The notes under the pieces were generated by a model. It worked only from the letters and a program-made list of their open reading frames with translations, was not told the origin of the DNA and ran no database searches. Shown in pieces: positions 2,579-61,663 of a stretch of DNA of 64,000 bases (its first letter is position 1; the number at the start of each line of letters is the position of its first letter). Made by a program: the position numbers and the translations under genes. This DNA is from Candidatus Alkanophaga liquidiphilum (GTDB taxonomy: Archaea > Halobacteriota > Syntropharchaeia > Alkanophagales > B39-G2): contig JAPHEF010000001.1 of assembly GCA_029259535.1 (NCBI GenBank), positions 21,399 to 85,398 of the forward strand, read 5' to 3'.

Positions 2579-4054
2579 ATGGCGTCGCTGATATATGCAA
2601 AGGATATACCCGAGGCTTACGCGCTGGCAAACAACGAGATACTGGTGAGGGGCGTGGAAGCGGCGTCGGAGCGGGGCAATGTCAAATTTATCAACGACCT
2701 GCTCGTCGTGGTGGAGCGACCGGAAGTGGCGCTCGCCGAAGGCTCGCCGCACGCCTCCCACTTCTCACTTCTTGCAGAGACGCCAAACGAAGTTTGGAGG
2801 ATAGGAGGAGTCACCGGCGTCTTCGAGCGTGAAGAGACTTATGCCGACCGCTTCAGAAAACCCTTAGACCAGATAGGCAAAGGCGTGGAACTAATAAGGA
2901 GGAAGCCGTATTCGAGGAGGTTTTGCGTGAGCGTCGCCCGCCCTTGGGACGTGCTGAGCAGGACTCCGCCCGCTCTCATGGAAATTTACGTGCAGGTTTT
3001 GGAGGCTGCCGACGCGGACGCCGTTGAGCAGGAGGACGGCGGAGGACGCAGACGGGAAGAGCGGAAAGAAGTGCACGTCACCGGCTTTTTCAGGAGCGTT
3101 GACGTTTTCAATTACTTAAATCTGAACCTCAACGGGCTGTGCGAGCTTCAGGAGCTTATTTGCAGGGAAACCGGCTACGAGAAAGGAAGCATCGCTGCCC
3201 ATCTCGTGAATGCCCACTACTACCTCAGGAACGAGCGGCAGGTAGAAAAGGTCACCAGCAGTGCGGAGGCGAGAGCTGCTACTAGGAAAAGTGAGAGAGA
3301 AGCGGTGCGGCTCGGCGGGTTAATAAAGACGGAGCATCTGCCGTCAGGCTGGCGTGAGACTCTTGAGCTCATTTACCGACAAGGACTGCAGACGGAGACT
3401 GAGTGGGGCGAGGTTTTCGAGAGAAAGCGGCGGGCAAAGTTCGCTCACAGGCTTCTTTTAGAAATAGAGCGCCCGTCGGAGGACATGGAGGACGATAAGG
3501 CGCCGTTCACAAGGAAATATCTGGAGGAATATGCGTTGCGTTACGTGCTCGGCACGACAAATTTGCCGGCGACGGAATCCGAAATCCTCTACGAAGAGGG
3601 CGAAGCCTACACCTACGCTTCGAGGGCGAGGTATGAGCCCGCCGACATGGGATTCTTCGAGCTTAAAAAGCCTGTAGACCAACTTTATCACGCCATAGAA
3701 CTTCTTAGGAAGGACAAGAGGACGAGGCGTGCCACAATCGTCATATCGAGACCGTGGGACATTTTGAGTGAAGATCCAGCGTGTTTAAGGGGCTACGTGT
3801 TCCATGCAGATCCGCAAGACCCCGAAGCTCTGAGGATAACGCTGTTCATGCGTTCTAACGACGCCTACGGAGCGACTCTCGCAAACCAGTTTGCGTTCAC
3901 GAGGCTTGCGGAGTTCGTCGCCGCGAAGACGGGCTTCGAGTCCGTGAAATTGACGTTACTGGCGGCGAACATGCACATTTATGAGGACGCTTTTGAATTT
4001 GTTGAAGGCTTGTTGAAGCCGAAGATGCCGTCGTTCGGAGAGTTTTTTAGTTAA
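2579..4054 (+). CDS. Tandem-duplicated thymidylate synthase (ThyA)-fold protein, fused pseudo-dimer
   Basis: The 491 aa protein is two ~245 aa ThyA-like halves. Both halves carry the phosphate-binding RR..W(D/P) motif (RRFCVSVARPWD and RRATIVISRPWD). Both carry the RS.D...N-like segment (RSVDVFNYLNLN and RSNDAYGATLANQF). Only the second half keeps the nucleophile context P-x-C (DPACL); the first has PPAL. Confidence 0.6.
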   Translation: MASLIYAKDIPEAYALANNEILVRGVEAASERGNVKFINDLLVVVERPEVALAEGSPHASHFSLLAETPNEVWRIGGVTGVFEREETYADRFRKPLDQIGKGVELIRRKPYSRRFCVSVARPWDVLSRTPPALMEIYVQVLEAADADAVEQEDGGGRRREERKEVHVTGFFRSVDVFNYLNLNLNGLCELQELICRETGYEKGSIAAHLVNAHYYLRNERQVEKVTSSAEARAATRKSEREAVRLGGLIKTEHLPSGWRETLELIYRQGLQTETEWGEVFERKRRAKFAHRLLLEIERPSEDMEDDKAPFTRKYLEEYALRYVLGTTNLPATESEILYEEGEAYTYASRARYEPADMGFFELKKPVDQLYHAIELLRKDKRTRRATIVISRPWDILSEDPACLRGYVFHADPQDPEALRITLFMRSNDAYGATLANQFAFTRLAEFVAAKTGFESVKLTLLAANMHIYEDAFEFVEGLLKPKMPSFGEFFS

Positions 4055-5561: not shown

Positions 5562-6563
5562 TCAATATGCTTCCAAACACTCCCAGCGCAGCCCTGTCAG
5601 GACGCCCACGAGTTTTGCGACGTAGCTGCCAAGTGGCTCGTTACCAGCACGAGCGTCGATGATGGCGTTCTGCGTGCCCTTAAGCGCGTCGAACATCATT
5701 CGCTCTATGACCTCATTGAACTCCTCGACTGTGAGCCCCATGCCCACCGAGAACATGAAGGTGAGCGTTACGATGGCGCCGGCGGCGGCGTCGCTACGGG
5801 CTTTCAGCAACAGGTCCTGTTGTGATACGTAAATTTCGGTCTTCGTCAATCCGAATTTCAAAAACGGCACGCAAAGCCCCTTTAAAAGCTCCTTCGTCAG
5901 TTTGTAATGCGGGTTCACAAGGAATAAGGTCTCCGAAATGGCTTTTATGACGTCTGCGGCGATGGCGCTCGCCAGCCTGTGCCGTGGCAGCGGGACGTCC
6001 GGCACGTTTTCAAAAATTCTGCCCTCATCCAAGACGACGACGGCGTCTGCGCTCTCCCGTAGCTGTTCTATTTCTTTTTTGGCTAATTCCATCTTAAGAC
6101 CCTCGGAAGGGAGCGTGACGAAAGCAACGGCGGTGGCGCCTTGCTCCTTTGCAGCATCTAAGGCGACGGACGCCATGCTGGTATCAAGCTCGTGCGCTGC
6201 GTGTGCCGTGACAAAGACCACATCAAAGTTATCGAGATGTGGAACCAACCCCTCTTTCAAAGACCTGATGGCATTAGCGTAGCACGCCTCGGGCATGTTC
6301 TGCCGGAATAACGCCTTCTCAAGCCTTATATTCCTGTCGGCTTTCGTCTTCTTTAACTGACGCTTGTCGGCGATAGCGACGGTTTCCACGCATTTCGGCG
6401 TTCTCTCGATGATGCGGCGTAACGTTCTACAACCGGATTCTCCGCAGCCGACAACCGCCACTCTCGACACACCGAGCACCTCAGGGCGCTCCACCTCAGC
6501 GACGCTGTATCCCTCTTTGACGAAAAGCAGTCTTTTCGCCCCGAACATTTGCACCAGTATCAC
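5562..6563 (-). CDS. FtsZ/tubulin-superfamily paralog with degenerate GTP-binding (T4) and catalytic (T7) loops
   Basis: The T1-like loop VAVVGCGESG is present. Around the T4 position the sequence aligns with FtsZ [26 protein letters not shown] as FVTAHAAHELDTSMASVALDAAKEQG. The T7 NVDFADV region is replaced by LVNPHYKLT. Confidence 0.55.
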   Translation of the reverse strand: MILVQMFGAKRLLFVKEGYSVAEVERPEVLGVSRVAVVGCGESGCRTLRRIIERTPKCVETVAIADKRQLKKTKADRNIRLEKALFRQNMPEACYANAIRSLKEGLVPHLDNFDVVFVTAHAAHELDTSMASVALDAAKEQGATAVAFVTLPSEGLKMELAKKEIEQLRESADAVVVLDEGRIFENVPDVPLPRHRLASAIAADVIKAISETLFLVNPHYKLTKELLKGLCVPFLKFGLTKTEIYVSQQDLLLKARSDAAAGAIVTLTFMFSVGMGLTVEEFNEVIERMMFDALKGTQNAIIDARAGNEPLGSYVAKLVGVLTGLRWECLEAY

Positions 6564-6639
6564 CTGTTTCCCTTATCGCACTCTTACGATGAAAAATTTG
6601 ATGCGGTGAAAAATAAAATTTTCTAAAAGTAGTAGTGAG

Positions 6640-7968
6640 ATGGGGGAGCTCATCTTGCTCGTCGGCTTTTCGCTCGTAGGCACGCTCATCGGTTTCTTCA
6701 CAGGCCTAATTCCTGGCATTCACGTGAATAACGTTGCGTTCACGCTTCTGACGCTGTCCCCAGCTATTTTTCGCATCATTGAAGGCTCGCCGCTGCCGCA
6801 AGGCTTTTTGCCGTTGTGCGTCGCATCTTTGGTGATCTCGGCATCCGTCGCTCATACCTTCTTGAGCTTTATTCCCACCGCCTTCTTCGGCGCCCCCGAG
6901 GGAGACACAGCCCTTTCCCTCCTTCCTGCGCACCACATGCTCCTTGAGGGGCGTGGCTACGAAGCCGTGTCGCTATCCGCAGTTGGGAGCTTTTGCGCTG
7001 TCGTCTCGGCGTTTCTACTGCTTCTCCCCTTTAAGTTTGTGTTTTCGGCGCCTCTGCACTTTTACGGCATACTGGACGCCGTCCTACTCTTTCTCCTACT
7101 GGGAATCTCGGCATTGCTTATCCTGACTGAAAGCTTTAACGAAAGACTTATGCCGATGCAAGCGGTCCTTTTAGCGCTTCTCGTTTTCATGTTATCTGGA
7201 GCGTTAGGGTATTCGATTCTGAATACGGAGCTTATGAACATCAGCAACGGTCTTTTCAATTCTTATCGAGTTTCTCTGCTCTTCCCAGCCCTCACGGGGC
7301 TTTTCGGCGTTGCATCTTTGCTGTATTCAGCGGCGCACGCCCCAGACATACCGGCACAGGTGTTAAAGGAGCCTGAAATTAATAAAAGCGAGCTTACGAA
7401 GTCAATAGCGGCAGGCACGCTTTTCGGAAGCGTCGTTGGTTTTCTTCCGGGAATCACGGCGGCGCATGCGACGGTATTTGCGATGCTCGCCCGTCGTAAC
7501 AGAGCGCCGGAGCAAATAATTCTAACACTCAGCAGCGTTAATACCGCCAACGCGATTTTCTGCACCGCTGCACTCTTTTTAATTCTGAAGCCAAGAAGTG
7601 GTGCGCTCATTGCGGTGAGCGAGCTCATAAGCGTAGAGCCTTGGGGAGGGATAATTCCACCACTGAGCCTCTGCTACCTCCTCATCTCAGTTCTGGTGGC
7701 GAGCTTCTTTTCCTATTTCGCAACAATGCTCGTGGGTAGACGACTCTCCGCAATTTTCACAAGGCTACCATACCAGCTTGTGGTCTTTGGCATTCTGACG
7801 CTGCTTTTCGCTCTCGTTTTTTTGTTTAATGGTGTTTTTGGCATGCTTGTCATGCTCGTTGCGACGTGCATAGGTCTTGTGCCCATTTATTTGGGCGTGC
7901 GGCGTTCGCACTGCATGGGAGTGTTACTGCTGCCGATAATCTTGTTCTATGCTAATATTTCACTGTAA
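6640..7968 (+). CDS. TctA/DUF112-family polytopic membrane protein
   Basis: The protein is highly hydrophobic with two internal repeats carrying a G..TGLIPGI / GFLPGIT motif, typical of the TctA duplication. Confidence 0.5.
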   Translation: MGELILLVGFSLVGTLIGFFTGLIPGIHVNNVAFTLLTLSPAIFRIIEGSPLPQGFLPLCVASLVISASVAHTFLSFIPTAFFGAPEGDTALSLLPAHHMLLEGRGYEAVSLSAVGSFCAVVSAFLLLLPFKFVFSAPLHFYGILDAVLLFLLLGISALLILTESFNERLMPMQAVLLALLVFMLSGALGYSILNTELMNISNGLFNSYRVSLLFPALTGLFGVASLLYSAAHAPDIPAQVLKEPEINKSELTKSIAAGTLFGSVVGFLPGITAAHATVFAMLARRNRAPEQIILTLSSVNTANAIFCTAALFLILKPRSGALIAVSELISVEPWGGIIPPLSLCYLLISVLVASFFSYFATMLVGRRLSAIFTRLPYQLVVFGILTLLFALVFLFNGVFGMLVMLVATCIGLVPIYLGVRRSHCMGVLLLPIILFYANISL

Positions 7969-9104
7969 ACACCAAGCGTCATTTTTGCGACATTATCCCA
8001 AGAGAAGAACTTTGCGGCTTTTCTGCCGTTTTCGCCCATCCTGCGTGCATGTTCGAAATTTGAAAATATTTCTTTGATGCCCCAGCTTATTGATTGTGGA
8101 TTGTCGTAAACCCTAAGCCCATTGATGCCGTGCTTGACGTATTCGAAGCCGTTCTGCGTCACGATTATCGGCTTACGGGCAGCCCACGCTTCGAGGGCGA
8201 CTATGCCGAAGGGCTCATTCCTTGAAGGTATGCAGACGACATCGCACGCCTTATACCACTTCCCGAGGTAATCTTCAGAAACATAGCCAAGGAACCTCGT
8301 AGCGTGCGCCACGCCCAGCTCCCACGCCCGACGTTCGAGCCAAGGACGCATGTGCCCGTCGCCTATGAACACGAACTTTGCATCCGGGAATTCTATCAAG
8401 ACAGAGGGGACCGCCTCTAAGAGTAAATCAGGCCCCTTCTGCACGACCATCCTGCCGACAAACAAGCAGACCGGGTCCCAGACACCAATACTGAGCCACC
8501 TTTTGACCTCCCAAGGGTCAACAGGCACGTCAAACTTATGCAACGAGACGCCGTTTGGAATTACTGCAATTTTCCAATCTTCGAACTTATAAATGCGCTT
8601 TATTTCCTCTTTCAGCGTCTGCGACGTCGTAATTATCTTGTTGGCGACGAAGCCGCCATACCATTCCAAATTCCGGATATGCCATGATTGCCCCTCATGG
8701 AAGGCATTACCGCACCGCCCGTATTCTGTGGAGTGCAGCGTGAACACGGTCCTCTTTCCGCGGGCGTTTTTTATCTCTGCGAGCGCGTTTGCGGTCATCC
8801 AGTCGTGACCATGAATTATGTCGAAATGCCCTGCGATGTTTTCCGTTTCAAAGAAATGCCAAGCGAAAGAGCGGCACATGTTGTTCATCTCCCCCACGAA
8901 GTTGGAGTTCAAATCGAAAGGGCATCGGTGGTAATGGACGCGGTCAATGACCTCATACTGCGGCTGCCCGTGCCCCATCCTCGTAAACACGTGAACCTCG
9001 TTTCCCAGCCTTTCAAGCGCAGCAGCGAGCTCCGTCACGTGGACGGCGACGCCTCCAACTTTGATGGAATGTAAAGATTCCCAACTGAACATTGCGATTC
9101 TCAT
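7947..9104 (-). CDS. glgA: Glycogen synthase (GT5-type, archaeal GlgA)
   Basis: MRIAMFSWESLHSIKVGGVAVHV matches the glycogen/starch synthase N-terminal KVGGL motif. The start was chosen at ATG 9104 (MRIAMF) rather than the longer ORF start at 9305. This sits 17 nt downstream of the NDP-sugar pyrophosphorylase gene. Confidence 0.8.
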   Translation of the reverse strand: MRIAMFSWESLHSIKVGGVAVHVTELAAALERLGNEVHVFTRMGHGQPQYEVIDRVHYHRCPFDLNSNFVGEMNNMCRSFAWHFFETENIAGHFDIIHGHDWMTANALAEIKNARGKRTVFTLHSTEYGRCGNAFHEGQSWHIRNLEWYGGFVANKIITTSQTLKEEIKRIYKFEDWKIAVIPNGVSLHKFDVPVDPWEVKRWLSIGVWDPVCLFVGRMVVQKGPDLLLEAVPSVLIEFPDAKFVFIGDGHMRPWLERRAWELGVAHATRFLGYVSEDYLGKWYKACDVVCIPSRNEPFGIVALEAWAARKPIIVTQNGFEYVKHGINGLRVYDNPQSISWGIKEIFSNFEHARRMGENGRKAAKFFSWDNVAKMTLGVYSEILA

Positions 9105-9120
9105 TTCCAACCCTGACTTC

Positions 9121-10605
9121 CTAACCAGCTCTCGGCGTTGAGTCCCGAATCTCAGCATTCGCATCCACGGCTTCGTCTCTGACCGCAGCGGCGAGGCGTC
9201 TTCGTAGAATCTCGATGAGGAGCGTCCTCGCACGTTCGCCTTTAACGCCACGCACCGCCTCTGCCAGCTTTTTCTCGCCAAAGATATGGCAAATCCACTC
9301 AGCAAAATCGTTAGTGCTGTTCCTAAGATGGTATTTTATTGAGCGTTCGTCAATAATTTTGAGAATTTCGACCAGCTCCTCAATGCTGTATGCCACGAAT
9401 CCGGTGTGGCGGACGGTGCCGTCGTCGTCCTGCAAGTTGAAGTAGAAAGCTTCTTCTTCAGGAACTCGACGGAGGAGCTTGTTCTTAAGCGGGGTCTTCG
9501 GGCGGGCGTGCTCGAACCTGACGAAGCGTCGCAGCTCGCCCTTGAGCTTCGAACCGTAGGAGAGGCTGACAAACGGCCAAACCTTACCCTCAGCGAGGAC
9601 AGCATCGTAGATGCTGCAATAAGGACCGACGACCGAATCCACGACTCTGGCGCCACTCCTTACCATTGAGCTTTCGCCGATGATGCTGCACTTCACATAT
9701 GCGGAAGCGATTTCAGAATCTTCGAATAGCACAGATGCATGCAGCTCGGCGGACTCGACGACCGCACCCTCGCCGATGACGGTGGGTCCGTAAATAACGG
9801 CATCGGCAACAACTGCGCCCTCGCCTATGAAAACATCTCCGTATATCTCAGCGTCTCGCAGCTCTGCATCATCGACTGCGGCAACGGGAGTGCCGCCAGC
9901 ACGCTTTTTCAGGAGCCAAGCCACCGCCCGCATGTAGCCATCGGGCTTGCCGACGTCCACCCAGAAGCCCTTGACCTCGCAGCCGTAAAGTTCGCCTTCT
10001 TGTGCCAAAATCGGGAACAAGTCCTTTGAGAAATCAAAAGAACATCGCTCAGGCACATACTCCAAAACGTCGGGCTCAATCACGTAAAGCCCTGTGTTTA
10101 TCAGATTGCTAAAACACTCTTCGGGTCTGGGCTTCTCCTTAAACCTCTTTACTACGCCCTCCTCATCTATTTCCACAATCCCATAATGGTAAGGGTCGTC
10201 CACGTGCATCAGAGCTATCGTGGCGAGGCGTCCATGCTTCTTGTGGAACTTAATAAGCTCTTTTAAGTTTATATCGGTGATGTTGTCGCCTTGAATTATG
10301 ACGGCGGTCTCGTCGAGACCGGCATTCTTGACGGAGCCTGCAGTGCCCAGCGGCTCCGGCTCTTCAGGATACGAGAGTTTAAGGTTTTTTGCCTCCCCAC
10401 ATTTGCTAAGATGCTCAATTATCATCTCCCGTAGGTAGTTCGTAGTGATGGTTATGCTTTTTATGCCATGTATCTTCAGATACTTGACAATATGCTCTAA
10501 TATTGGCTTATCGACCAGCGGGAGCAGAGGCTTCGGCCTCGTGAATGTCAAGGGGCGAAGCCTCGTTCCAAAACCACCCGCGAGAATCACAGCTTTCGAC
10601 GTCAT
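9121..10605 (-). CDS. Sugar-1-phosphate nucleotidyltransferase (NDP-glucose pyrophosphorylase) with left-handed beta-helix and ~110 aa C-terminal extension
   Basis: The N-terminal AVILAGGFGTRLRPLT motif (G-x-G-T-R) is present. Hexapeptide-repeat region is present. An extra C-terminal domain has no obvious match. Adjacent to glgA. Confidence 0.8.
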   Translation of the reverse strand: MTSKAVILAGGFGTRLRPLTFTRPKPLLPLVDKPILEHIVKYLKIHGIKSITITTNYLREMIIEHLSKCGEAKNLKLSYPEEPEPLGTAGSVKNAGLDETAVIIQGDNITDINLKELIKFHKKHGRLATIALMHVDDPYHYGIVEIDEEGVVKRFKEKPRPEECFSNLINTGLYVIEPDVLEYVPERCSFDFSKDLFPILAQEGELYGCEVKGFWVDVGKPDGYMRAVAWLLKKRAGGTPVAAVDDAELRDAEIYGDVFIGEGAVVADAVIYGPTVIGEGAVVESAELHASVLFEDSEIASAYVKCSIIGESSMVRSGARVVDSVVGPYCSIYDAVLAEGKVWPFVSLSYGSKLKGELRRFVRFEHARPKTPLKNKLLRRVPEEEAFYFNLQDDDGTVRHTGFVAYSIEELVEILKIIDERSIKYHLRNSTNDFAEWICHIFGEKKLAEAVRGVKGERARTLLIEILRRRLAAAVRDEAVDANAEIRDSTPRAG

Positions 10606-14411: not shown

Positions 14412-14915
14412 TCAAAGCACCTGCACGCTCTTCACGCCCTTTGTCCTTCTTAATTCCTCTATCAAACGTCCTGGGACTTGCCCGTCTATAATTATTGTGA
14501 GCTTTGGCTCCTCCACGAAATAAGGGTCGTCGCTCACCGCTTGCCGAATGCTAAGCCCGTGTTTAGAGATTACTGTGGTGACCTCGCTGAGTATGCCTTT
14601 ATCCCTTGCATCCTTTGGGTATATTATCACAACGCCAAGATTAAGGAGCGGTGCTATGTTGTCAAGAAGCGGCACAGACCGCAGATTCTCAAACATCCTC
14701 CTCAAAGTATCATCAGCCATTATCGCCTTCACGGTCATGTCAACAACCCTGCGGTCAACACCAGCCTCCTTTGCAACTTGTGAATGCGGTATTCTTATAT
14801 TCCCTGAGGAAATCCGCCCTTCTGCGTCGATACGGAAGCCACGCTCCAGCAGTAAACGAACTACCTTCTTCTGCGACGGCGTCTTTTCAAATTTGCCCAT
14901 TATTTCTCCCCACAT
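14412..14915 (-). CDS. Predicted regulator with N-terminal HTH and C-terminal ACT-like domain (COG2150-like)
   Basis: An N-terminal helix-turn-helix segment (VVRLLLERGFRI) is followed by a ~70 aa ACT-like beta-alpha-beta-beta-alpha-beta tail. Confidence 0.45.
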   Translation of the reverse strand: MWGEIMGKFEKTPSQKKVVRLLLERGFRIDAEGRISSGNIRIPHSQVAKEAGVDRRVVDMTVKAIMADDTLRRMFENLRSVPLLDNIAPLLNLGVVIIYPKDARDKGILSEVTTVISKHGLSIRQAVSDDPYFVEEPKLTIIIDGQVPGRLIEELRRTKGVKSVQVL

Positions 14916-14995
14916 GTTCTCTCGTTTGTTGTAAGGGTTTAATTATTATCACGGTGTTCGGGAGCTATCTTAAATTTCCGAAAAAAAGATTCATT

Positions 14996-16153
14996 ATGAT
15001 TTCCGAAGTCTCAGGCGAAAATTTGAAAAAGCGGTTCGATGATGTTTTAAGGACGACAGTGCGTGTTTTAAGAGATTGCTCCGTCGAAAACGGAGCAATA
15101 GTTGCGGCGAACACAGACATGGACTATTACCCTAAGGACGCGTCGCCTTATAGGTTCGTTTGGATAAGGGACGCAGCTTACGTCTGTGTCGCCGCCGACA
15201 TCCTTGAGGAGCGTGGTGTTGCGAGTTTGAGGATACAGAAGAAGTTTTTTAAGTGGTGTCTTGAAAGACCGCAAAGCTTTTCAGGGGCTTCCGCCGAAAA
15301 CGGCGCCGTGTTCTCGCAGCGATATCACACAAACGGCGTCAGGGAGGGCTGGCAATTGCAGCCCGATCAGACAGGCACGCTGCTCTGGGCGCTCTGGCAT
15401 CACTTCCGCAAAAATCTGGTGCAGGCGCAGGAGTTCGAGACTCTCATAAGGAGGGCGGCAAACGGCATCTGTAAAATCTGGGGCGGCAAACACTTCACCA
15501 CGAGCACTTTCGACCTTTGGGAGGAGCGTGCGACGTTTCCAGACACTAAGGACAACCACACATACTCGCTGGCGGCATGCAGTAAGGGGCTGATGTGCGC
15601 CAGCGAGCTTGCGGAAGGCAGCGGCTACGCAAAGGCGGAAGAGGTTAAAAAATGGAGGAAATGCGCCTTAGAGATGGAGAGCGCGGCATTAGCTTCTTAT
15701 AGCGCCAATGAGGGATATTTTCTAAGGACTTCAGGCTTGCTTGATGATGACACCGTAGATGCGTCGCTGCTCGGCTTAGTTTATCCATTTGAGTTGCTTT
15801 CGGCGGGAGATGAGAGGATGGTCAATACCGTTAGGAAGATGGAAGAAAAAATAGTGCGAGGCGGCGGCGTTTACAGATACGAAAAAGATTTTTACGACGG
15901 CTGGGTGCGAGATGGCAGCCTTAGGTCCAAAGGGGCGGGAGCGTGGCCCCTCTTGAATTTCTGGATGAGCATTTATTATTCCGTAAAAGGAGATGCTGTG
16001 AGCGCAGAGAAATATTATACGTGGGTCCTACGGCGTGTTGACGGATACATACCTGAGCAGATATTTGAAAATGAGCTGCAAAAATCGGTGTATCCACTGG
16101 CGTGGGCGCATGCGATGTTCGTTCTCGCCTCTCACTTCTTGACTCTGCTGTGA
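14996..16153 (+). CDS. Glycoside hydrolase family 15 (glucoamylase-type) catalytic-domain protein
   Basis: GAIVAANTDMDYYPKDASPYRFVWIRDAAY matches the GH15 G-x-I-x-A-x...Y-x-Y-x-W-x-RD motif. The start was moved to ATG 14996 (MISEVSG) because the longer ORF from 14651 overlaps the opposite-strand regulator. Confidence 0.65.
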   Translation: MISEVSGENLKKRFDDVLRTTVRVLRDCSVENGAIVAANTDMDYYPKDASPYRFVWIRDAAYVCVAADILEERGVASLRIQKKFFKWCLERPQSFSGASAENGAVFSQRYHTNGVREGWQLQPDQTGTLLWALWHHFRKNLVQAQEFETLIRRAANGICKIWGGKHFTTSTFDLWEERATFPDTKDNHTYSLAACSKGLMCASELAEGSGYAKAEEVKKWRKCALEMESAALASYSANEGYFLRTSGLLDDDTVDASLLGLVYPFELLSAGDERMVNTVRKMEEKIVRGGGVYRYEKDFYDGWVRDGSLRSKGAGAWPLLNFWMSIYYSVKGDAVSAEKYYTWVLRRVDGYIPEQIFENELQKSVYPLAWAHAMFVLASHFLTLL

Positions 16154-22895: not shown

Positions 22896-24575
22896 ATGCC
22901 CGGGCGTGCAGAAGAGATTTGGATTGAGAAATACCGCCCTAAGACGCTCGACGAGATTGTAGGGCAGGAGGAAATCGTCAGAAACCTCAAGTCCTACGTT
23001 AAAGCGGGAAACATGCCGCATCTCATCTTTTCAGGACCCGCAGGCGTCGGGAAGACGGCAGCGGCAGTAGCGCTCGCCAGGGAGTTTTTCGGCGACGCCT
23101 ACGAAGAGAACTTCACCGAATTAAATGCATCGGTGACGCCTGAGACCGTCTTAGTGCTGCGTGCCGGCGGCAATATAACGAGTTTGAGTTTCAAGGAGCT
23201 TGACAAGCTGATTTTTGGAGATGACAAGGAAGAAGAATATGCAATATTACAAGGGGTCGAAGTCCTCTCGGTGGCAGATTACAAAATCAAATTCATGCCC
23301 GTCTCGGCGGTTGCAAGGCACAAAGCCGAACGTATTTTGAGAATAAAGCACGAGGGCGGGGAAATAAGCGTCACCCCTGACCATTCTTTAATCGTAATCA
23401 CTGAGAGCGGAGCTCTCGCTTCAAAACCCGCCGCAGAAGTGGAAACTGGCTCGTTTCTGATCTCCTTCTGCGATGGCGGCGGCAAGCTCCCCGCAGAACC
23501 CCTCTTGAATTTCCTCAGGAACGCAAACGCTGTAAGTTGGCATTTGAGCAACGTATGCAGCGCCGCCGACACCATTGAGAAATCGAAGATGTTGGGTGCC
23601 ATTAGGTCGGTTAACGCTAAGGAACTACACGAGGGAGAACAAAAGACCTTTGAGACGCTTAGGAAGCTTGCAAGCTCTAAGCTTCACGTCTTAAAAGTCA
23701 AGGACGTGAAAGAGATGAGCTACGACGGCTGGGTTTACGACGTGGGCGTCCCACGCACCGAGATGTTTTGGGGTTTCGCCGCTAACGGCAGAGTCACGTC
23801 TGTGATGGCGCCGCCCGTTTTGCTGCATAATTCAGACGAACGGGGCATAGATGTCGTGCGCAACAACATAAAGAATTTTGCGAGGATGATGGCCGTCGGC
23901 GGGAAGTTTAAGATAATTTTCCTTGACGAGGCTGACGCTCTCACCGACGCCGCCCAGTCCGCCTTAAGAAGGACGATGGAGCGCTACTCCGCAACGTGCA
24001 GGTTCATCTTCAGCTGCAACTACTCTTCAAAGATAATAGAGCCGATACAGTCGAGGTGCGCAGTTTATCGATTCAAGGCACTCCCCTATGACGCCATAAA
24101 GAAAAGGCTTCTCTACATTGCAAAGCAGGAACGCCTTAAGATTTCGGAGGAGGTCATAAAGGCGATATATGACGTTGCGGGTGGCGACATGCGACGAGCG
24201 ATAAATGCGCTGCAGAGCGCCGCCGCAGTGAGCAAGGAAATAACGCCAGAAATCATATACAATATCACGGCGACGCCGAGTCCCGAGGTGGTGGAGGCGC
24301 TGATAAGAAAAGCGTTATATGAAGATTTCTTTGAAGCTCTTGAGATGCTTAACACGCTTCTGGACGAGAAGGGCGTGGCGCCCGACGAGTTGCTTACACA
24401 GATGCATAAAACACTTTTGAATATGGAAATACCACCCGAAAAGAAGGTTTATTTGATAGACAGGATAGGAGAAGTGGATTTTAGGATTGCGGAGGGGGCG
24501 AACGAGCGAATTCAGCTTGAGGGGCTGCTCGCATTCTTTCACCTTTATGGAGGGCAGCGAGCTGGGGGCGTTTGA
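22896..24575 (+). CDS. rfcS: Replication factor C small subunit containing an in-frame intein
   Basis: The exteins give the canonical RFC small subunit. Walker A GPAGVGKT precedes ELNA|(intein)|SDERGIDVVR. The downstream RFC boxes follow (DEAD-like FLDEAD, SRC). Extein length is ~325 aa. Confidence 0.85.
   Translation: MPGRAEEIWIEKYRPKTLDEIVGQEEIVRNLKSYVKAGNMPHLIFSGPAGVGKTAAAVALAREFFGDAYEENFTELNASVTPETVLVLRAGGNITSLSFKELDKLIFGDDKEEEYAILQGVEVLSVADYKIKFMPVSAVARHKAERILRIKHEGGEISVTPDHSLIVITESGALASKPAAEVETGSFLISFCDGGGKLPAEPLLNFLRNANAVSWHLSNVCSAADTIEKSKMLGAIRSVNAKELHEGEQKTFETLRKLASSKLHVLKVKDVKEMSYDGWVYDVGVPRTEMFWGFAANGRVTSVMAPPVLLHNSDERGIDVVRNNIKNFARMMAVGGKFKIIFLDEADALTDAAQSALRRTMERYSATCRFIFSCNYSSKIIEPIQSRCAVYRFKALPYDAIKKRLLYIAKQERLKISEEVIKAIYDVAGGDMRRAINALQSAAAVSKEITPEIIYNITATPSPEVVEALIRKALYEDFFEALEMLNTLLDEKGVAPDELLTQMHKTLLNMEIPPEKKVYLIDRIGEVDFRIAEGANERIQLEGLLAFFHLYGGQRAGGV
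23130..23831 (+). other. Intein (~234 aa) inserted in RFC small subunit between ELNA and SDERGID
   Basis: The intein begins with Ser (block A SVTPETVLVL) and has block B TPDH. It ends ...VLLHN followed by the Ser +1 extein residue. No clear LAGLIDADG motif was seen. Confidence 0.7.
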
Positions 24576-55405: not shown

Positions 55406-56200
55406 ATGGAACTTGAGTTCTTATACAGCGGCGATTTTGGCAACGTCGTCATCGGCAACCTCGTGAATTATTCGACGTTCTGCCGAGCATGTGGGGAAGC
55501 GTGCGTAGAATGCCGAGTGGGCTGGAGCCATGCAGATAGCATCACGGCTGCCGTGAGCCTGCCGCCGCCCGAGAGCCTGCCCCATTTCTTAGACGCTCCC
55601 GAGAGCTTCTTGCTCGACTTAATCCCGGCAGACGTGCTCATAGCGATAAACATCCATCCTGACGTGCTCTTAAGTTTACCCAAACGTCTTGAGGAGCTTG
55701 GCGTTTGCGCTTTGATAGTTCCTGCTGAGAGCCCAAGGGAGCTGCCCGTGGGCGTCAGGCAGCAGCTAAAGGACGCTTGCGAGATGCATGGTGTCGAATA
55801 CGCCTTTCCGAAGCCGTTCTGCGCCTTAGACCCCAGGGACCCTGTAGTCAGCCGCTTTAAAACCGTGAGGCGCTTCGTCGAAGACTTTGGCGTCGGCAAG
55901 CCGGAACTGCGGATCTCGTTAAAAAGCGGAGCTATAAGCAGCGCTGAGGTCCTGCGGAGCGCCCCCTGCGGCTCTACATGGTTTGTCGCTCGGAAAATAA
56001 TAGGATTTAGGGCGCCGACCGACGCCGACGACGCTGCATTGCGCGAGCTGTTTGACGCGATTTCAAAAGCGCATCATTCTTACCCTTGCACGGCGAGCAT
56101 GGAGCTCGACAAGGAGCTCGGAGATACTGTCCTTCACAAAGCTGGATATCTGATTAGAGAAGCTATCCTTAAGGCCTTAAACGTAGAAATGCCCCTTTGA
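55406..56200 (+). CDS. Hypothetical Cys-rich protein (compact CxxCx3CxxC motif; possibly DUF166-like)
   Basis: An N-terminal FCRACGEACVEC cluster is present. No other recognised motifs were found. This is the last gene of the cooS-linked, same-strand run. Confidence 0.4.
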   Translation: MELEFLYSGDFGNVVIGNLVNYSTFCRACGEACVECRVGWSHADSITAAVSLPPPESLPHFLDAPESFLLDLIPADVLIAINIHPDVLLSLPKRLEELGVCALIVPAESPRELPVGVRQQLKDACEMHGVEYAFPKPFCALDPRDPVVSRFKTVRRFVEDFGVGKPELRISLKSGAISSAEVLRSAPCGSTWFVARKIIGFRAPTDADDAALRELFDAISKAHHSYPCTASMELDKELGDTVLHKAGYLIREAILKALNVEMPL

Positions 56201-56265
56201 CATCCGAGAGGTAAACCTAAAATTTTTATATTTTAGTTATCCCAACAAAACAAGGGGGAGGGAGT

Positions 56266-56583
56266 ATGTACACGTCTTTCCTGCAATATGACCCCAGAGT
56301 TGTTCGCTCCTTGAAACGGAGCAGGGTCAGGGTTGCTATTTTATTATATCTCAACAAAATATACCCGAACATGTCTTATCCGGCGGAAATCGCTCGGAAT
56401 ATAGGAATCGACGCGACGAACGTGCTCGGCGGGCTCAGGGGCATGGGCAGTAGATATAACGGCTCCAGCTCCCTCGTGGAGCTCGGGCTTGTTGATAAGG
56501 TAGATATAAACGGCGTCAGTTATTACAAGCTCTCGAAAATAGGCAAGCAGGTCGTAGACATCTTAGAGTCCTCTCTATTTTAA
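56266..56583 (+). CDS. Small winged-helix DNA-binding protein (putative regulator)
   Basis: The 105 aa protein has a wHTH-like core (YPAEIARNIGIDATNVLGGLRGM...LVELGLVD). It lies in the low-GC island. Confidence 0.4.
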   Translation: MYTSFLQYDPRVVRSLKRSRVRVAILLYLNKIYPNMSYPAEIARNIGIDATNVLGGLRGMGSRYNGSSSLVELGLVDKVDINGVSYYKLSKIGKQVVDILESSLF

Positions 56584-56593
56584 GGGATGCGCT

Positions 56594-57535
56594 ATGAATA
56601 AGTTAATAACCGATATTGGCAACAGTATTGAAGCTGCTACGAGATTCGTTAAAGGCTATATAATATCTATAGGCTCTGTCACCAATATTTTCAGTGCTAT
56701 AGAAAACAACATACAAACGGTTGACGACATCGCTGAGGAATATGGCTATAGGAACAAGAGGCTCCTAAAGTTGTATTTGGATATTTTGTGCTCGTATTCC
56801 ATATTGAAAAAGGAAAATTCGAAATACTTCTTGGTCGATGGTGTGAATATAAGATTGGAGAAGCGAGATTTCATGCTCGATAAGATGAAAGAAGATCTCA
56901 TAAGCTTTTTTATGTCTTTGATAAACGTTTTTCCCCATCTGCTCATCGACCCGAACAACCCACTTGCCACCACCGACTTCGAAAGAGATGCTAATATCTG
57001 GAGCATTTGGTTGGAAAATGATTGGTTCAAGTCAGTAAGGTGGGCTATAACAGAAATAGGAAGAATAGGCAAGAGAGATTACATCTTGGACATGGGCAGC
57101 GGCTCCGTTTCCCCGCTATACTTTGCAGAAATCGTTGGTGAGAATGGGAGGGTTACAGGGCTGGACAAGTCCAAAAAAATGGTGGAAATCGCAAGGACGA
57201 AGATAGAAAACCGGGGGTATTCATGGGTCGAGATGGAGCACTGCGATATCGAAAACGATGTGGGGTTGGACGAAGAATACGACATCGTTATTCTTTCGAT
57301 GGTATTAGAATACGTGCATAATATGGAAAAAGTTATCGAAAATGCATACAACGCCCTGAAGGACGGCGGTAGGCTGATAATATTTAAAATGCCAGACAAT
57401 CCCATCATAAATTTTACAGAAGCACTAATACCGCAATTTGTTAAGCTGCGGACCACGAGAGAGATAAAAGAAGTTTTGACAAAAGTCATAGTCAAAGAGT
57501 ATGGAGACCTACTTATAGTTGCTCATAAGTATTAA
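56594..57535 (+). CDS. Class I SAM-dependent methyltransferase with N-terminal winged-helix/dimerisation domain (O-methyltransferase-like)
   Basis: Motif I is ILDMGSGSVSPL, with an acidic residue after beta2 (VTGLD) and motif IV (DIVILSMV). The N-terminal ~170 aa are a helical/wHTH domain. GC is ~38%. Confidence 0.7.
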   Translation: MNKLITDIGNSIEAATRFVKGYIISIGSVTNIFSAIENNIQTVDDIAEEYGYRNKRLLKLYLDILCSYSILKKENSKYFLVDGVNIRLEKRDFMLDKMKEDLISFFMSLINVFPHLLIDPNNPLATTDFERDANIWSIWLENDWFKSVRWAITEIGRIGKRDYILDMGSGSVSPLYFAEIVGENGRVTGLDKSKKMVEIARTKIENRGYSWVEMEHCDIENDVGLDEEYDIVILSMVLEYVHNMEKVIENAYNALKDGGRLIIFKMPDNPIINFTEALIPQFVKLRTTREIKEVLTKVIVKEYGDLLIVAHKY

Positions 57536-57621
57536 TAATTTATGTATATACAACATGCATATACGCCTACATATTCACTTATACATCTCGTTTTATCAGA
57601 TACAGCCCTCTAAGAGCGTTT

Positions 57622-58209
57622 GTGATAGGGCTTGGGCTGTTGAATACACCACAGCATTACACTGTTATTACTTTTGCAGCTATTGGTGCAGGACTTAAAT
57701 TCATAGACGATACTTTCGATGAAAACGTTTTTGACAAGAGGTTTGCGGGCGTCGTTGCTCCTGCGCTGGTAATAATGGCGTTAATCATGTCCGCAAACGA
57801 TACGGCAGCTGCGACCCTCCTACTTTCAATACTTCTAGCGGTTATTTTTGCGGGCAAGGTCGATAATTTGGTATTCAAGGTTAATGCTTTTGTTTTTTTG
57901 GTGTTGTTCTGCGTCACTGCCTCTTTTAACCTACTATGGTTTCATTTAGCTATTTTAACCGCCGCAGGCATCATTGATGAAAGAGGCAATGATTATATTG
58001 ATTCCCAACATGATACGTCCAAATTTTTGAGGGCATTCTTTGCTCATAGGTGCATGATGAAGGTCAGCATGCTGCTTTTATGCGCTTTTTCACCGCTTTC
58101 GTGGCTTTATTTCTTTGCACTTTTAGCTTTTGACGCGGCTTATGATTCTGTGAAATGGCTTTCTGACTGTAAAAAGGAGAGAAAAGGCGTTACAGCTACG
58201 GAGTCTTGA
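57622..58209 (+). CDS. Hypothetical polytopic membrane protein
   Basis: There are 5-6 TM helices and no recognisable domain. It lies in the low-GC island and ends 6 nt from the tRNA-Ala 3' end. Confidence 0.4.
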   Translation: MIGLGLLNTPQHYTVITFAAIGAGLKFIDDTFDENVFDKRFAGVVAPALVIMALIMSANDTAAATLLLSILLAVIFAGKVDNLVFKVNAFVFLVLFCVTASFNLLWFHLAILTAAGIIDERGNDYIDSQHDTSKFLRAFFAHRCMMKVSMLLLCAFSPLSWLYFFALLAFDAAYDSVKWLSDCKKERKGVTATES

Positions 58210-58214
58210 ATCTA

Positions 58215-58286
58215 TGGACCGGTCGGGATTTGAACCCGAGGCCTCTCGCACGCCAAGCGAGCGATCTTCCGCTGATCTACCGGCCC
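58215..58286 (-). tRNA. tRNA-Ala (anticodon GGC)
   Basis: The minus-strand sequence is GGGCCGGTAGATCAGCGGAAGATCGCTCGCTTGGCGTGCGAGAGGCCTCGGGTTCAAATCCCGACCGGTCCA. It folds as a cloverleaf with 7-bp acceptor, D and T arms (GGTTCAAATCC). The anticodon loop is TTGGCGT and the G3:U70 Ala identity pair is present. CCA is not encoded. Confidence 0.85.
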
Positions 58287-58451: not shown

Positions 58452-59504
58452 ATGCCAGAGGAGATGAGTCATAGGGAGAGGTTGTTTGCGGCGTTCGAGC
58501 GGAGTTCTTATGACCGGGCGCCGTGTCCGGGGATTACGCAGACCGGGACGGTCGAGCTGATGGAGGCGAGCGGCGCTTTCTTCCCGGAGGTGCATTGGGA
58601 CGCTGAGAAGATGGCGAAGCTGGCGTGGGCGGCTTTCGAACATGCCGGACTCGAAGGCATCCGTGTCCCGTTCATCATTTACACCGAAGCGCTCGCCGTC
58701 GGCACTGAGCTTTTCAAATGGGAGAAGGACAACATGCCGATGGTGAAAAAATACCCATTCAGTAGCGTCGAGGAGGCTGCCGAGAAGTTAGAAGTCCCGA
58801 ATCCGAGAGAAGCTGAGAGCATGCGGGTTGTGCTGGACGCCATCGAGCTCTTAAAGCCAAAATGCGATGCTGAGAAGCTACCGCTGACCGGGCACGCCGT
58901 TGGCGCATTCCTCTTAGCCTTTGGCGTCGTGGATTTCATGAACGCCATGATAGCATTCAAGAAGAGCCCTGAAAGCTTTAGGGAAATCTGGGAGAAGACA
59001 AAAGAGCTTGTAATAACGTGGTCGGAGGCAATGATTGACGCCGGCGCCGACGTCATTTTTTACAACTGCGCAGCGCTCGGCAACTTCAGACCCGACGACT
59101 ACGAAAAACACGGGTTTTCTATTGACCGGGAGTGCATACGGAAAATAAAGGAAAAGGGGGCTTATGTGCTGGTCCACGTCTGTTCGGACATAAGGCCGGT
59201 GCTGGACCACGTGGTGAAGTTAGGGGCGGATGCTATTTCCGTGTCGGAAGTGGTGAAGATGGAGGATATTAGGAAGCGGGTCGGCGACGACGTCACGCTG
59301 ATGGGGAACGTGAACCAAGTATTCACGCTGATAAAGAGGGGGCCTGAGGAGGTCATGGCGGAGGCGAAGGCGTGTATAGAGGCGGGGACGGACATTCTGG
59401 CGCCGGGGTGCGGTTTCGGGACGAAGACGCCGCTCGCAAACATGCGTGCGATGGTGGATGCGGCTAAGAAATATGGGCACCTCGCCAGACTCGCTGGGAA
59501 ATAA
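58452..59504 (+). CDS. MtaA/MtbA-like methylcobamide methyltransferase (MT2; uroporphyrinogen-decarboxylase fold, Zn-dependent), paralog 1
   Basis: The 350 aa protein has URO-D-like N-terminal RERLFAA...RAPCPGITQTGTVELMEA. Zn-ligand contexts are VHVCSD (H-x-C) and APGCGFG. Confidence 0.75.
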   Translation: MPEEMSHRERLFAAFERSSYDRAPCPGITQTGTVELMEASGAFFPEVHWDAEKMAKLAWAAFEHAGLEGIRVPFIIYTEALAVGTELFKWEKDNMPMVKKYPFSSVEEAAEKLEVPNPREAESMRVVLDAIELLKPKCDAEKLPLTGHAVGAFLLAFGVVDFMNAMIAFKKSPESFREIWEKTKELVITWSEAMIDAGADVIFYNCAALGNFRPDDYEKHGFSIDRECIRKIKEKGAYVLVHVCSDIRPVLDHVVKLGADAISVSEVVKMEDIRKRVGDDVTLMGNVNQVFTLIKRGPEEVMAEAKACIEAGTDILAPGCGFGTKTPLANMRAMVDAAKKYGHLARLAGK

Positions 59505-59546
59505 TGCGGAAGAATTAAAACAGCGTCAGAATAAACAGGTGGTTGT

Positions 59547-60605
59547 ATGCCAGAGGAGATGAGTCATAGGGAGAGGTTGTTTGCGGCGTTCGAGCGGAGT
59601 TCTTATGACCGGGCGCCGTGTCCGGGGATTACGCAGACCGGGACGGTCGAGCTGATGGAGGCGAGCGGCGCTTTCTTCCCGGAGGTGCATTGGGACGCTG
59701 AGAAGATGGCGAGGCTGGCGTGGGCGGCTTTCGAACATGCCGGACTCGAAGGCGTCCGTGTCCCGTTCATCATTTACACCGAAGCGCTCGCCGTCGGTGT
59801 CGAGCTTGAGAAGTGGGCGAAGGACAACATGCCGATGGTCAAGAAGTTCGCGTTCGACAGTGTTGAGGAAATAGCCGAGAGGATGGAGATACCAGACCCG
59901 CAGACGGCGCCAAGCATGAAAGTCGTGCTGGATGCCATTAAGATTTTAAAGCCGAAGTGCGACGATGCGAAGCTTCCGATAACCTGCCACGTCGGCAGTG
60001 CGTTCGTTGGCGCCTTCCTCGGCATCGTGGACATGATGAAAGCCATGATAACATTCAAGAAGAACCCTGAGGTCTTCGGCGGCGTCTTCGAGAAGACGAA
60101 GCAATTGGCACTGACGTGGGCGGAAGCCGCTATCGAGGCGGGGAGCGATGTTATTTTCTACAACTGTGCTCCGCTTGGCAACTTTAGACCCACCGACTAT
60201 GAGAAATATGGGCTTCCTGTGGACAAGGAGTGCGTAAAGAAAATAAAGGACATGGGCGCCTACGTCGTCGTGCACGTCTGTTCGGACATAAGGCCGGTGC
60301 TGGACCACGTGGTGAAGTTAGGGGCGGATGCCATTTCCGTGTCGGAAGTGGTGAAGATGGAAGATATTAGGAAGCGGGTCGGCGACGACGTCACGCTGAT
60401 GGGGAACGTGAACCAAGTATTCACGCTGATAAAGAGGGGGCCTGAGGAGGTCATGGCGGAGGCGAAGGCGTGTATAGAGGCGGGGACGGACATTCTGGCG
60501 CCGGGGTGCGGTTTCGGGACGAAGACGCCGCTCGCAAACATGCGTGCGATGGTCGAGGCGGCTAAGAAATATGGGCACCTCGCCAGACTCGCTTCGGGGG
60601 CGTAA
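59547..60605 (+). CDS. MtaA/MtbA-like methylcobamide methyltransferase (MT2), paralog 2
   Basis: The first ~330 nt and last ~340 nt are near-identical at the DNA level to paralog 1. The central ~380 nt are divergent. Confidence 0.75.
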   Translation: MPEEMSHRERLFAAFERSSYDRAPCPGITQTGTVELMEASGAFFPEVHWDAEKMARLAWAAFEHAGLEGVRVPFIIYTEALAVGVELEKWAKDNMPMVKKFAFDSVEEIAERMEIPDPQTAPSMKVVLDAIKILKPKCDDAKLPITCHVGSAFVGAFLGIVDMMKAMITFKKNPEVFGGVFEKTKQLALTWAEAAIEAGSDVIFYNCAPLGNFRPTDYEKYGLPVDKECVKKIKDMGAYVVVHVCSDIRPVLDHVVKLGADAISVSEVVKMEDIRKRVGDDVTLMGNVNQVFTLIKRGPEEVMAEAKACIEAGTDILAPGCGFGTKTPLANMRAMVEAAKKYGHLARLASGA

Positions 60606-60607
60606 AA

Positions 60608-61663
60608 ATGGGAGATGAGATGAATTATAGGGAGCGGCTATTTGCCGCTTTAGACCAGAATCCGGTGGACCGGGCGCCGTGTCCGGGGATTACGCAGACC
60701 GGGACGGTCGAGCTGATGGAGGCGAGCGGCGCCTTCTTCCCGGAGGCGCATAAGGACGCTGAGAAGATGGCGAAGTTGGCGTGGGCGGCTTTCGAACATG
60801 CCGGACTCGAAGGCATCAGAATTCCTTTTATTGTTTATACCGAGGCGAGTGCGCTTGGCACAAGGCTTTACAAGTGGAAGAAAGACACGCAGCCCATGGT
60901 TGAAGAAGTTCCAATAAAGAGCCCAGAGGACATAGACAAGCTGGAAATTCCAGACCCGAGAGATGCGGAGTTGCCGTCTGTGGTGTTAAAGGCGATTGAG
61001 ATTTTGAAGCCGAAGTGCAACGCCGCAAAGCTGCCGCTGACTGTCATGGTGATAGCGCCGGCGACGATGTCGCTCGGTGGTGCTTTGGTTGACATAATGA
61101 AGGTGATGATGTGGGTGAAGACGAACATAGATGACACGGTGAAGCTTGCCAAAAAAGTAAGCGAGATGAGTCTCGCATTCGCTGAGGCAGTCGTGGACGC
61201 CGGCGCCGACGTCATCTTCTACAACGTTGGCATTTCCAGCAGGGTGAAAGAGTATCCTGAGGTCTTCTTCCCCATAGACAAAGAGGTCGCAGGCAAAATA
61301 CGGAAGATGGGCGTTTACATGGTTGCGCACCACTGCTCAGATCCAAGGCGGATAATAAACGAGCTTGCGAGTCTCGGCGCTCACGGATTGTCCATCCCGG
61401 AGCCGCAGATGATTCCCGTGCGGGAGGCACGTGAGCTCGTCGGCGACCGTGTGGCGCTCGTCGGCGGACTGGACCAGTTGCACACCCTGATAAAGAAGAG
61501 CCCAGAGGATGTGATGGAACAAGCAAAGACGGCGATAGAAGAGGGTATAGACGTGCTGGCGCCGGGGTGCGGTTTCGGGACGAAGACGCCGCTCGCAAAC
61601 ATGCGTGCGATGGTGGAGGCGGCTAAGAAATATGGGCACCTCGCCAGACTCGCTAAGAAGTAG
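60608..61663 (+). CDS. MtaA/MtbA-like methylcobamide methyltransferase (MT2), paralog 3 (more divergent)
   Basis: It shares identical ~80-nt (60661-60740) and ~100-nt (61558-61655) terminal blocks with paralogs 1 and 2. HHCSD and APGCGFG zinc contexts are retained. It starts 2 nt after the paralog 2 stop. Confidence 0.75.
   Translation: MGDEMNYRERLFAALDQNPVDRAPCPGITQTGTVELMEASGAFFPEAHKDAEKMAKLAWAAFEHAGLEGIRIPFIVYTEASALGTRLYKWKKDTQPMVEEVPIKSPEDIDKLEIPDPRDAELPSVVLKAIEILKPKCNAAKLPLTVMVIAPATMSLGGALVDIMKVMMWVKTNIDDTVKLAKKVSEMSLAFAEAVVDAGADVIFYNVGISSRVKEYPEVFFPIDKEVAGKIRKMGVYMVAHHCSDPRRIINELASLGAHGLSIPEPQMIPVREARELVGDRVALVGGLDQLHTLIKKSPEDVMEQAKTAIEEGIDVLAPGCGFGTKTPLANMRAMVEAAKKYGHLARLAKK

Follow-up and report, generated by a model that had tools for sequence, protein, structure and literature searches.

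FtsZ-family proteins are defined by GTP-driven polymerisation. In the FtsZ pocket, the phosphates are gripped by loops T1, T3 and T4, the ribose by T5 and the guanine by T6 and helix H7; the upper subunit supplies T7 to complete the active site and so activates hydrolysis in the neighbouring subunit. Nmar_1262 of Nitrosopumilus maritimus has AGKAGSA at T4 and no functional T7, formed no polymers in yeast and has likely lost its division function (PMC3684127). The plant protein ARC3 contains an FtsZ-like domain and directly regulates or inhibits Z-ring assembly (10.1101/2024.01.08.574726; domain scheme in PMC12232670). CetZ and the 'non-canonical tubulin-superfamily (TSF)' proteins of archaea are extra tubulin-superfamily paralogues found in Euryarchaeota, the latter being patchily distributed and highly divergent (PMC9856176). 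FtsZl1 and FtsZl2 (Makarova & Koonin 2010) are highly divergent prokaryotic proteins of the FtsZ-tubulin superfamily, usually encoded beside a canonical FtsZ and thought not to act directly in division; both keep T1 and T4, with family-specific inserts between the two (PMC2875224). FtsZl1 has no recognisable T6-H7, ends in a coiled coil and occurs in vWA-containing operons, and FtsZl2 carries an unrelated C-terminal region of about 300 residues (PMC2875224). FtsZ3 of Agrobacterium is a truncated, dispensable paralogue (10.1101/412759). Here we report on an FtsZ-like gene of Candidatus Alkanophaga liquidiphilum, a thermophile of the Guaymas Basin that oxidises petroleum alkanes (PMC10322722). 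The gene lies on the minus strand of a 64-kb stretch of DNA, which we call the window.

The protein descends from FtsZ and retains the FtsZ core; its canonical motifs and its C-terminal tail are lost, and its gene is under purifying selection. We regard it as probably a genus-specific, FtsZ-derived pseudo-GTPase with a non-catalytic structural or regulatory role, of which action as an FtsZ mimic is the version that we favour. An earlier note on this DNA, made from the sequence alone, had proposed an FtsZ/tubulin paralogue with inactivated GTP-binding and catalytic loops that might serve as a filament capper, regulator or scaffold, where the word 'paralogue' assumes that canonical FtsZ genes exist elsewhere in the genome.

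FtsZ ancestry and altered nucleotide and catalytic loops

The gene is an open reading frame (ORF) that occupies exactly 5562..6563 on the minus strand, with a GTG start codon, 333 amino acids and a stop codon at 5562-5564. Most gene callers prefer an in-frame ATG at 6548, which gives a form of 328 residues. Residues are numbered on this shorter form throughout, except in the search that retrieved FtsZ of Methanocaldococcus jannaschii, which used the 333-residue form.

By sequence, the protein is a genuine FtsZ homologue, its similarity being far above chance. It matched the Tubulin/FtsZ GTPase domain of Pfam (PF00091) with E=1.7e-11 and 45.2 bits, against a gathering cut-off of 33, and TIGR00065 (ftsZ) with E=3e-21, yet with only 76.1 bits against an equivalog cut-off of 295.2. 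The best solved structure found by sequence was M. jannaschii FtsZ (1fsz/1w58; E=3e-18, residues 33-288), and no CetZ or tubulin chain appeared among the PDB sequence matches up to E=10. Alignment of the family with a profile of 18 canonical FtsZ proteins by hhalign gave a probability of 99.4% and E=6.5e-22 over 288 columns, spanning both domains, while the match to FtsZ_C (PF12327) was weak (12 bits only). AlphaFold2 (AF2), when given an alignment that contained canonical FtsZ, returned a model with the complete FtsZ order of secondary structure, a predicted local distance difference test (pLDDT) of 77.9 and a predicted template-modelling score (pTM) of 0.81; the top structure in Foldseek was again M. 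jannaschii FtsZ, with a template-modelling score (TM) of 0.74. The homology that the earlier note had claimed thus stands on significant profile matches, and the model made from the FtsZ-containing alignment agrees with it. The two-domain FtsZ core appears to be kept, comprising the N-terminal Rossmann-like domain, H7 and the C-terminal domain.

The loops were compared with those of 62 canonical FtsZ proteins, most of them retrieved with an aenigmarchaeal FtsZ as the seed; the remainder were weaker FtsZ matches of the first search, one of them named as Chloroflexota. The protein and its parts are as follows.

5562..6563, minus strand: complete ORF, putative FtsZ-derived pseudo-GTPase, 333 residues from GTG 6563 or 328 from ATG 6548 (profile searches and hhalign)
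6468..6548, minus strand: N-terminal extension, residues 1-27, MFGAKRLLFVKEGYSVAEVERPEVLGV, predicted to be disordered (pLDDT about 30)
6426..6449, minus strand: T1 remnant GCGESGCR (canonical GxGGAGNN), with G37E and N41R (alignment to canonical FtsZ)
Minus strand, same ORF: T2 remnant -AD (canonical N-T-D), with Asn deleted, Thr changed to Ala and Asp kept (alignment to canonical FtsZ)
6291..6314, minus strand: T3 remnant ALFRQNMP (canonical GLGAGxxP), with GLGAG changed to ALFRQ and a 4-residue deletion in the HMMER alignment
6177..6203, minus strand: T4 remnant HAAHELDTS, in place of the tubulin signature G-x-GGGTGTG (alignments)
6093..6116, minus strand: T5 remnant TLPSEGLK (canonical T-x-PF-x-x-EG-x-x-R), 2 residues shorter and with F148S
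6021..6032, minus strand: T6 remnant LDEG (canonical I-P-N-D), with the base-contacting Asn changed to Glu (N175E)
5919..5984, minus strand: core helix H7, RHRLASAIAADVIKAISETLFL, with the guanine-contacting Phe changed to His190 (F190H) and Asp to Ser194 (D194S)
5898..5915, minus strand: remnant NPHYKL of the T7 'synergy loop' (canonical N-x-D-F-A-D), with both catalytic Asp lost and Asn alone kept
5565..5882, minus strand: predicted FtsZ-type C-terminal domain, residues 223-328, with a family-specific 4-residue insertion TLTFMFSVGMGL (FtsZ_C at 12 bits, AF2, hhalign)
6426-6449, 6282-6284 and 6201-6203, minus strand: Cys and His residues around the former phosphate site (C35, C40, C89, H116)

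Among the 62 canonical proteins, 124 columns show conservation of at least 90%; the protein kept 37 of these, chiefly core glycines, prolines and hydrophobic residues. The substituted positions of T1, T2, T3, T5, T6 and H7 listed above are 97-100% conserved in the same set, and all nucleotide-contacting positions are altered save G34, G36, G39, D61, T123 and N212. The tubulin signature GGGTG(T/S)G, 100% conserved among the canonical proteins, reads AHELDTS here and ESELDFN in the orthologue of Ca. Alkanophaga volatiphilum (see below).

Every motif quoted in the earlier note was found in the protein: FVTA at residues 112-115, HAAHELDTS at 116-124 (nucleotides 6177-6203), AAKEQG at 132-137, VTLPSEG at 144-150 and NPHYKL at 212-217 (nucleotides 5898-5915). 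Its claims that the T4 signature is replaced by HAAHELDTS, and the N-x-D-x-x-D of T7 by NPHYKL, were both borne out by the alignment. The degeneration goes further than the note had described, as T1, T2, T3, T5, T6 and H7 are also altered.

Since the GTP-contacting elements and T7 are lost, neither binding nor hydrolysis of GTP in the manner of FtsZ is expected of the protein. Without such use of GTP it would not build dynamic, treadmilling, GTP-dependent filaments by itself, so that a non-catalytic structural or regulatory role would be left to it.

The former phosphate site has also acquired residues of another kind. In both species, C40, C89 and H116, in loops T1, T3 and T4, stand where canonical FtsZ has an invariant Asn, Gly and Gly, and C35 is conserved with them. 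Lying beside a strongly basic H1/H2 surface, these four residues could form a new metal or ligand site, their conservation in two sequences not being significant.

The two ends of the protein differ from those of FtsZ as well. The N-terminal peptide, though left disordered by AF2, is 77% identical between the two species. We considered and dropped the idea of an amphipathic, membrane-targeting helix, because on inspection the hydrophobic residues segregate on neither a helix nor a strand. At the other end the chain stops 8 residues past the last core strand (residues 311-320, followed by a short helix at 322-327), and the canonical homologues in the alignment run 30-60 residues further. The protein is thus without the C-terminal linker and the tail peptide for membrane anchors.

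Distribution, orthologue and selection

Among about 15 billion public proteins, the only orthologue found was the one in Ca. A. volatiphilum, at 73% identity. When 5.8 billion protein clusters were searched by a word index, only two related clusters came up, about 99% and 73% identical, the latter being the A. volatiphilum protein. When 1.84 billion representatives were searched exhaustively with an HMMER profile, a single cluster scored below 1e-30, namely the family itself, and the next match (7e-19) was a protein with canonical FtsZ motifs. Scans of GTDB species genomes and of JGI metagenomes gave the same two species only. The family is thus, as far as public data go, restricted to one genus, Ca. 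Alkanophaga. The nearest canonical FtsZ matches came from Odinarchaeia, from Lokiarchaeota/Promethearchaeota (Asgard) and from DPANN; they give no clue as to whether the parent paralogue was FtsZ1 or FtsZ2. We found no literature describing the Alkanophaga protein.

The orthologue did not contain an intact GGGTG(S/T)G loop. It reads AHAESELDFN at T4 and NPHHKL at T7, that is, it bears the same class of substitutions. Its match to PF00091 reached 17.6 bits, under the Pfam cut-off. GTG 6563 and GTG 6554 are common to both species, and ATG 6548 is replaced by ACC in A. volatiphilum (positions 9965-9992 of its locus, L003). The start codon is ambiguous, and public gene calls accordingly span 328 to 348 residues.

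Comparison of the two genes by the Nei-Gojobori method gave a ratio of nonsynonymous to synonymous substitution (dN/dS, or omega) of 0.14 at a dS of 1.1; the genes that flank it, TctA and NTP-transferase, gave 0.09 and 0.12. Seventy positions that depart from the canonical consensus were identical in both species. Conservation was uneven along the protein. The stretch S1-T1-H1-S2-T2-H2 was the most conserved (88% identity, omega 0.10) and includes 29 consecutive identical residues (23-51), within which the T1 remnant lies. The C-terminal domain was also well conserved, its insertion sitting in a 20-residue stretch with 95% identity. The least conserved stretch was S4-T4-H4-S5-T5 (residues 101-160; 53% identity, omega 0.29), and this relaxation fits a pocket freed from holding a nucleotide.

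These numbers bear on the idea that the protein still binds a nucleotide in a non-canonical pocket and forms filaments as a cytoskeletal protein. G34-x-G36-x-x-G39 of T1 and D61 of T2 survive and are highly conserved, and the protein gave weak matches to Rossmann/NAD-binding families of Pfam (E=0.03-0.1). The latter are uninformative, since canonical FtsZ proteins score equally weakly with families of the same kind. T3, T4, T5, T6 and H7 are all replaced or shortened, however, T7 has no acidic residue, and the former T4 region evolves faster than the rest of the protein, which is unexpected for a working ligand pocket. We consider this idea improbable.

The same data speak to whether the gene is a decaying, non-functional duplicate or an artefact of assembly or sequencing. 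The family is extremely narrow, with two species of one genus, and some degenerate FtsZ paralogues, such as Agrobacterium FtsZ3, are dispensable (10.1101/412759). Yet the frame is intact in both species at a dS of about 1.1 with a dN/dS of 0.14, 70 derived positions are common to both, and identical or near-identical sequences came from 8 or more independent contigs or assemblies, several of the identical contigs tracing to the sequencing runs of one study (PMC10322722). Such an origin is very improbable, being effectively refuted by the orthologue, the dN/dS and the shared derived positions. Intact frames, low dN/dS and shared changes together indicate a maintained pseudo-GTPase and not decay or sequencing error; of the two possibilities that the earlier note had set side by side, a conserved pseudo-enzyme and a decaying gene, it is the former that holds.

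A foreign origin found no support either. The GC content of the gene and its GC content at third codon positions (GC3) matched those of its neighbours, the protein had no PADLOC or PHROG match, and phage and plasmid collections yielded distant matches only (at most 31% identity), those annotated on plasmids being ftsZ genes. We rejected a mobile-element or defence origin on these grounds. Like decay and artefact, recent horizontal acquisition is unlikely. Both species carry an intact gene that has a native composition and evolves under purifying selection.

The names under which the protein is deposited differ. It is identical to GenBank MDF2954416.1 (Candidatus Alkanophaga liquidiphilum), named 'Cell division GTPase FtsZ' by the submitters, and the RefSeq entry for the same protein, WP_456487242.1, reads 'hypothetical protein'. 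The GenBank label (MDF2954416.1 / MDF2956505.1) is misleading, the GTPase motifs being lost, and it could mislead counts of division genes in alkane-oxidising archaea.

Genomic context

The gene appears on the following background.

6564..6639, no strand: divergent intergenic region of 76 bp, with one AT-rich, TATA-like block at about 6608-6627
6640..7968, plus strand: TctA-family membrane protein, divergently transcribed, in a 4-gene syntenic block

The FtsZ-like gene is monocistronic, with a T-run after its stop codon; the CBS-domain gene downstream is preceded by its own AT-rich element. The AT-rich block of the 76-bp spacer is conserved in A. volatiphilum, and the spacer may serve both genes, the FtsZ-like one and TctA, as a bidirectional promoter. 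Only one block is collinear between the two species. It consists of an NTP-transferase, a glycogen-synthase-like glycosyltransferase, TctA and the FtsZ-like gene, with 79% nucleotide identity over 5 kb and rearrangements on both flanks. Synteny in two genomes this closely related would argue only weakly for a functional link between the FtsZ-like protein and TctA.

The neighbours of the gene are TctA, the CBS protein, the glycosyltransferase and the NTP-transferase, with no vWA protein among them, and no other division gene was found in the window. A tblastn search for a second FtsZ was negative in the window and in the 21-kb L003 locus, two loci that cover little of either genome. Searching for homologues of the closest canonical match (P0003) brought up FtsZ of Aenigmarchaeota and other DPANN only and none from Alkanophaga, and no FtsZ entry occurs in the supplementary material of the Alkanophaga and ANME-1 papers.

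This raises the question of whether canonical FtsZ has been lost and division now runs on a GTP-independent protein of FtsZ fold. The failure to find canonical FtsZ in either locus would fit such a replacement. The loci inspected are nevertheless small parts of their genomes, most Euryarchaeota encode both FtsZ1 and FtsZ2 (10.1101/2020.06.04.133736), and the protein has neither the catalytic loop required for dynamics nor a C-terminal anchor peptide. We hold it to be extremely improbable that this is the main division protein.

Some other features of the window may be mentioned. Two members of the syntenic block, the NTP-transferase and the GT4/GT5 glycogen-synthase-like transferase, belong to a glycogen-type set at 7947-10605 (minus strand) and 14651-16153 (plus strand), in which the NTP-transferase carries DUF5752 and a GH15 glucoamylase is nearby. 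A 2026 paper reportedly describes disaccharide production by alkane-oxidising consortia. At 2579-4054 (plus strand), a 491-residue protein matches PF00303 in two stretches, has two halves that resemble thymidylate synthase and looks like an internally duplicated or fused ThyA-like protein. The gene for the small subunit of replication factor C at 22896-24575 (plus strand) is split by an intein (PF14890, residues 123-293, between RuvB_N/AAA segments). Three tandem URO-D-family paralogues of 350-352 residues each, possibly MtaA/MtbA-like methyltransferases, occupy 58452-61663 (plus strand). They adjoin a tRNA-Ala(GGC) at 58215-58286 (minus strand) and lie just downstream of the bin where GC is lowest in the window (56001-58000; GC 0.425 versus a mean of 0.53).

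Possible roles and comparison with known systems

How a pseudo-GTPase of this type might act is a matter of comparison. In the mechanism that we favour, if tentatively, the protein would dock, as an FtsZ mimic, on protofilaments or subunits of canonical FtsZ. Once docked, it could cap filament ends or sequester subunits and thereby tune the assembly of the division ring. FtsZ mutants in the T7 loop interfere with FtsZ assembly, which offers a parallel for this model.

Several points weigh against it. Both halves of the longitudinal interface are altered, the top face in T2, T3 and T5 and the bottom face in T7, so that co-assembly with FtsZ is not assured. A mimic needs canonical FtsZ1 or FtsZ2 as a target, and neither was seen in the window or in L003. 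When AF2 was run on the family-only alignment (3 sequences) it failed (pLDDT 47.6); the good model depends on the FtsZ-rich alignment and thus restates the sequence homology and does not confirm it independently. Lastly, the degenerate thaumarchaeal protein Nmar_1262 stayed unpolymerised in yeast, and N. maritimus divides by Cdv instead (PMC3684127). By this precedent, degenerate FtsZ homologues need not act in division.

The alteration of both interface halves would also suit the main rival, a repurposed scaffold, that is, a stable fold that acts apart from FtsZ filaments and binds a new partner or ligand through a new surface. One candidate surface is the strictly conserved, basic, Cys-containing face T1-H1-T2-H2, where the 29 identical residues are followed by ADKRQLKKTKA, with a net basic charge; C40, C89 and H116 take the place of invariant residues. 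The other is the disordered N-terminal peptide with its 77% conservation. TctA is a candidate partner, as the two genes share the divergent region with its conserved AT-rich block and lie within the only block that is still syntenic between rearranged flanks. Against this, an identity of 79% at the nucleotide level across the block makes its synteny weak evidence, and with two sequences only the conservation of a patch is statistically meaningless. We regard a scaffold role as possible but somewhat unlikely. A further reading, in which the dead pocket has been rebuilt into a new binding site, is unlikely. The protein would then be a nucleotide-independent sensor or adaptor of FtsZ fold for a metal, a polyanion or a membrane partner, and it might be coupled to TctA or serve as a dedicated end-capper that controls division.

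Whichever role applies, a stand-alone FtsZ core that has no GTP loops and is under purifying selection is a natural experiment on a nucleotide-free fold. Regulation of canonical FtsZ would make the protein the prokaryotic equivalent of plant ARC3, and a filament capper that is genetically encoded; a new partner would make it a documented case of neofunctionalisation of a cytoskeletal fold. The impact is limited by the restriction to one uncultured genus and by the fact that comparable degenerate FtsZ homologues, Nmar_1262 and ARC3, are already known.

Compared with canonical archaeal FtsZ (M. jannaschii, 1FSZ/1W58), the Alkanophaga protein differs in the contact and catalytic residues of T1-T7 and H7; T3 and T5 are shortened, the linker and tail are absent, and there is a conserved N-terminal peptide of 27 residues. 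As it lacks the defining motifs and scores below the equivalog cut-off of TIGR00065, it is not a bona fide FtsZ. With its fold kept, its motifs lost and its gene under selection, it can be classed as a pseudo-GTPase on the present sequence evidence. We rejected an identity with CetZ, to which the protein is no closer than to FtsZ in sequence and structure. An identity with FtsZl1 or FtsZl2 was rejected as well, because the protein keeps H7 and the FtsZ C-terminal domain, loses T4 and T7 and has no vWA neighbour. It falls among the archaeal 'non-canonical tubulin-superfamily proteins' (PMC9856176), a loosely defined set.

Other FtsZ-like proteins with a degenerate T4, from metagenomes, were present among the representative matches (P0018, P0021, P0103 and P0116, about 310-370 residues); their signatures read, e.g., ADMDSSIVT, SNVDGMCT and ASLSEGTTA. 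The four representatives are only 20-25% identical to the Alkanophaga protein and form independent lineages, so that loss of the signature has been repeated and independent. They differ from it in that most retain N-x-D-x-x-D and in their strong FtsZ_C matches (58-82 bits). A further representative match from outside the window, P0012 (826 residues), is a single polypeptide in which a Q/P-rich linker connects two tandem FtsZ modules, both of them complete and canonical and both bearing GGGTGTG and N-x-D-x-x-D.

Nmar_1262 and the Alkanophaga protein are both archaeal FtsZ homologues with the same kind of degeneration. Nmar_1262 belongs to a different lineage, however, and is probably not an orthologue; in the exhaustive profile search nothing outside Alkanophaga did better than a generic FtsZ (7e-19). 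Thaumarchaea divide with Cdv, whereas the group of Alkanophaga normally uses FtsZ. ARC3 provides the functional model for an FtsZ mimic, by analogy with which a regulatory role of the Alkanophaga protein may be proposed. ARC3 is eukaryotic and fused to middle and MORN domains; the Alkanophaga protein consists of an FtsZ core standing alone. In concept, it comes nearest to Nmar_1262, ARC3 and dispensable truncated paralogues such as Agrobacterium FtsZ3.

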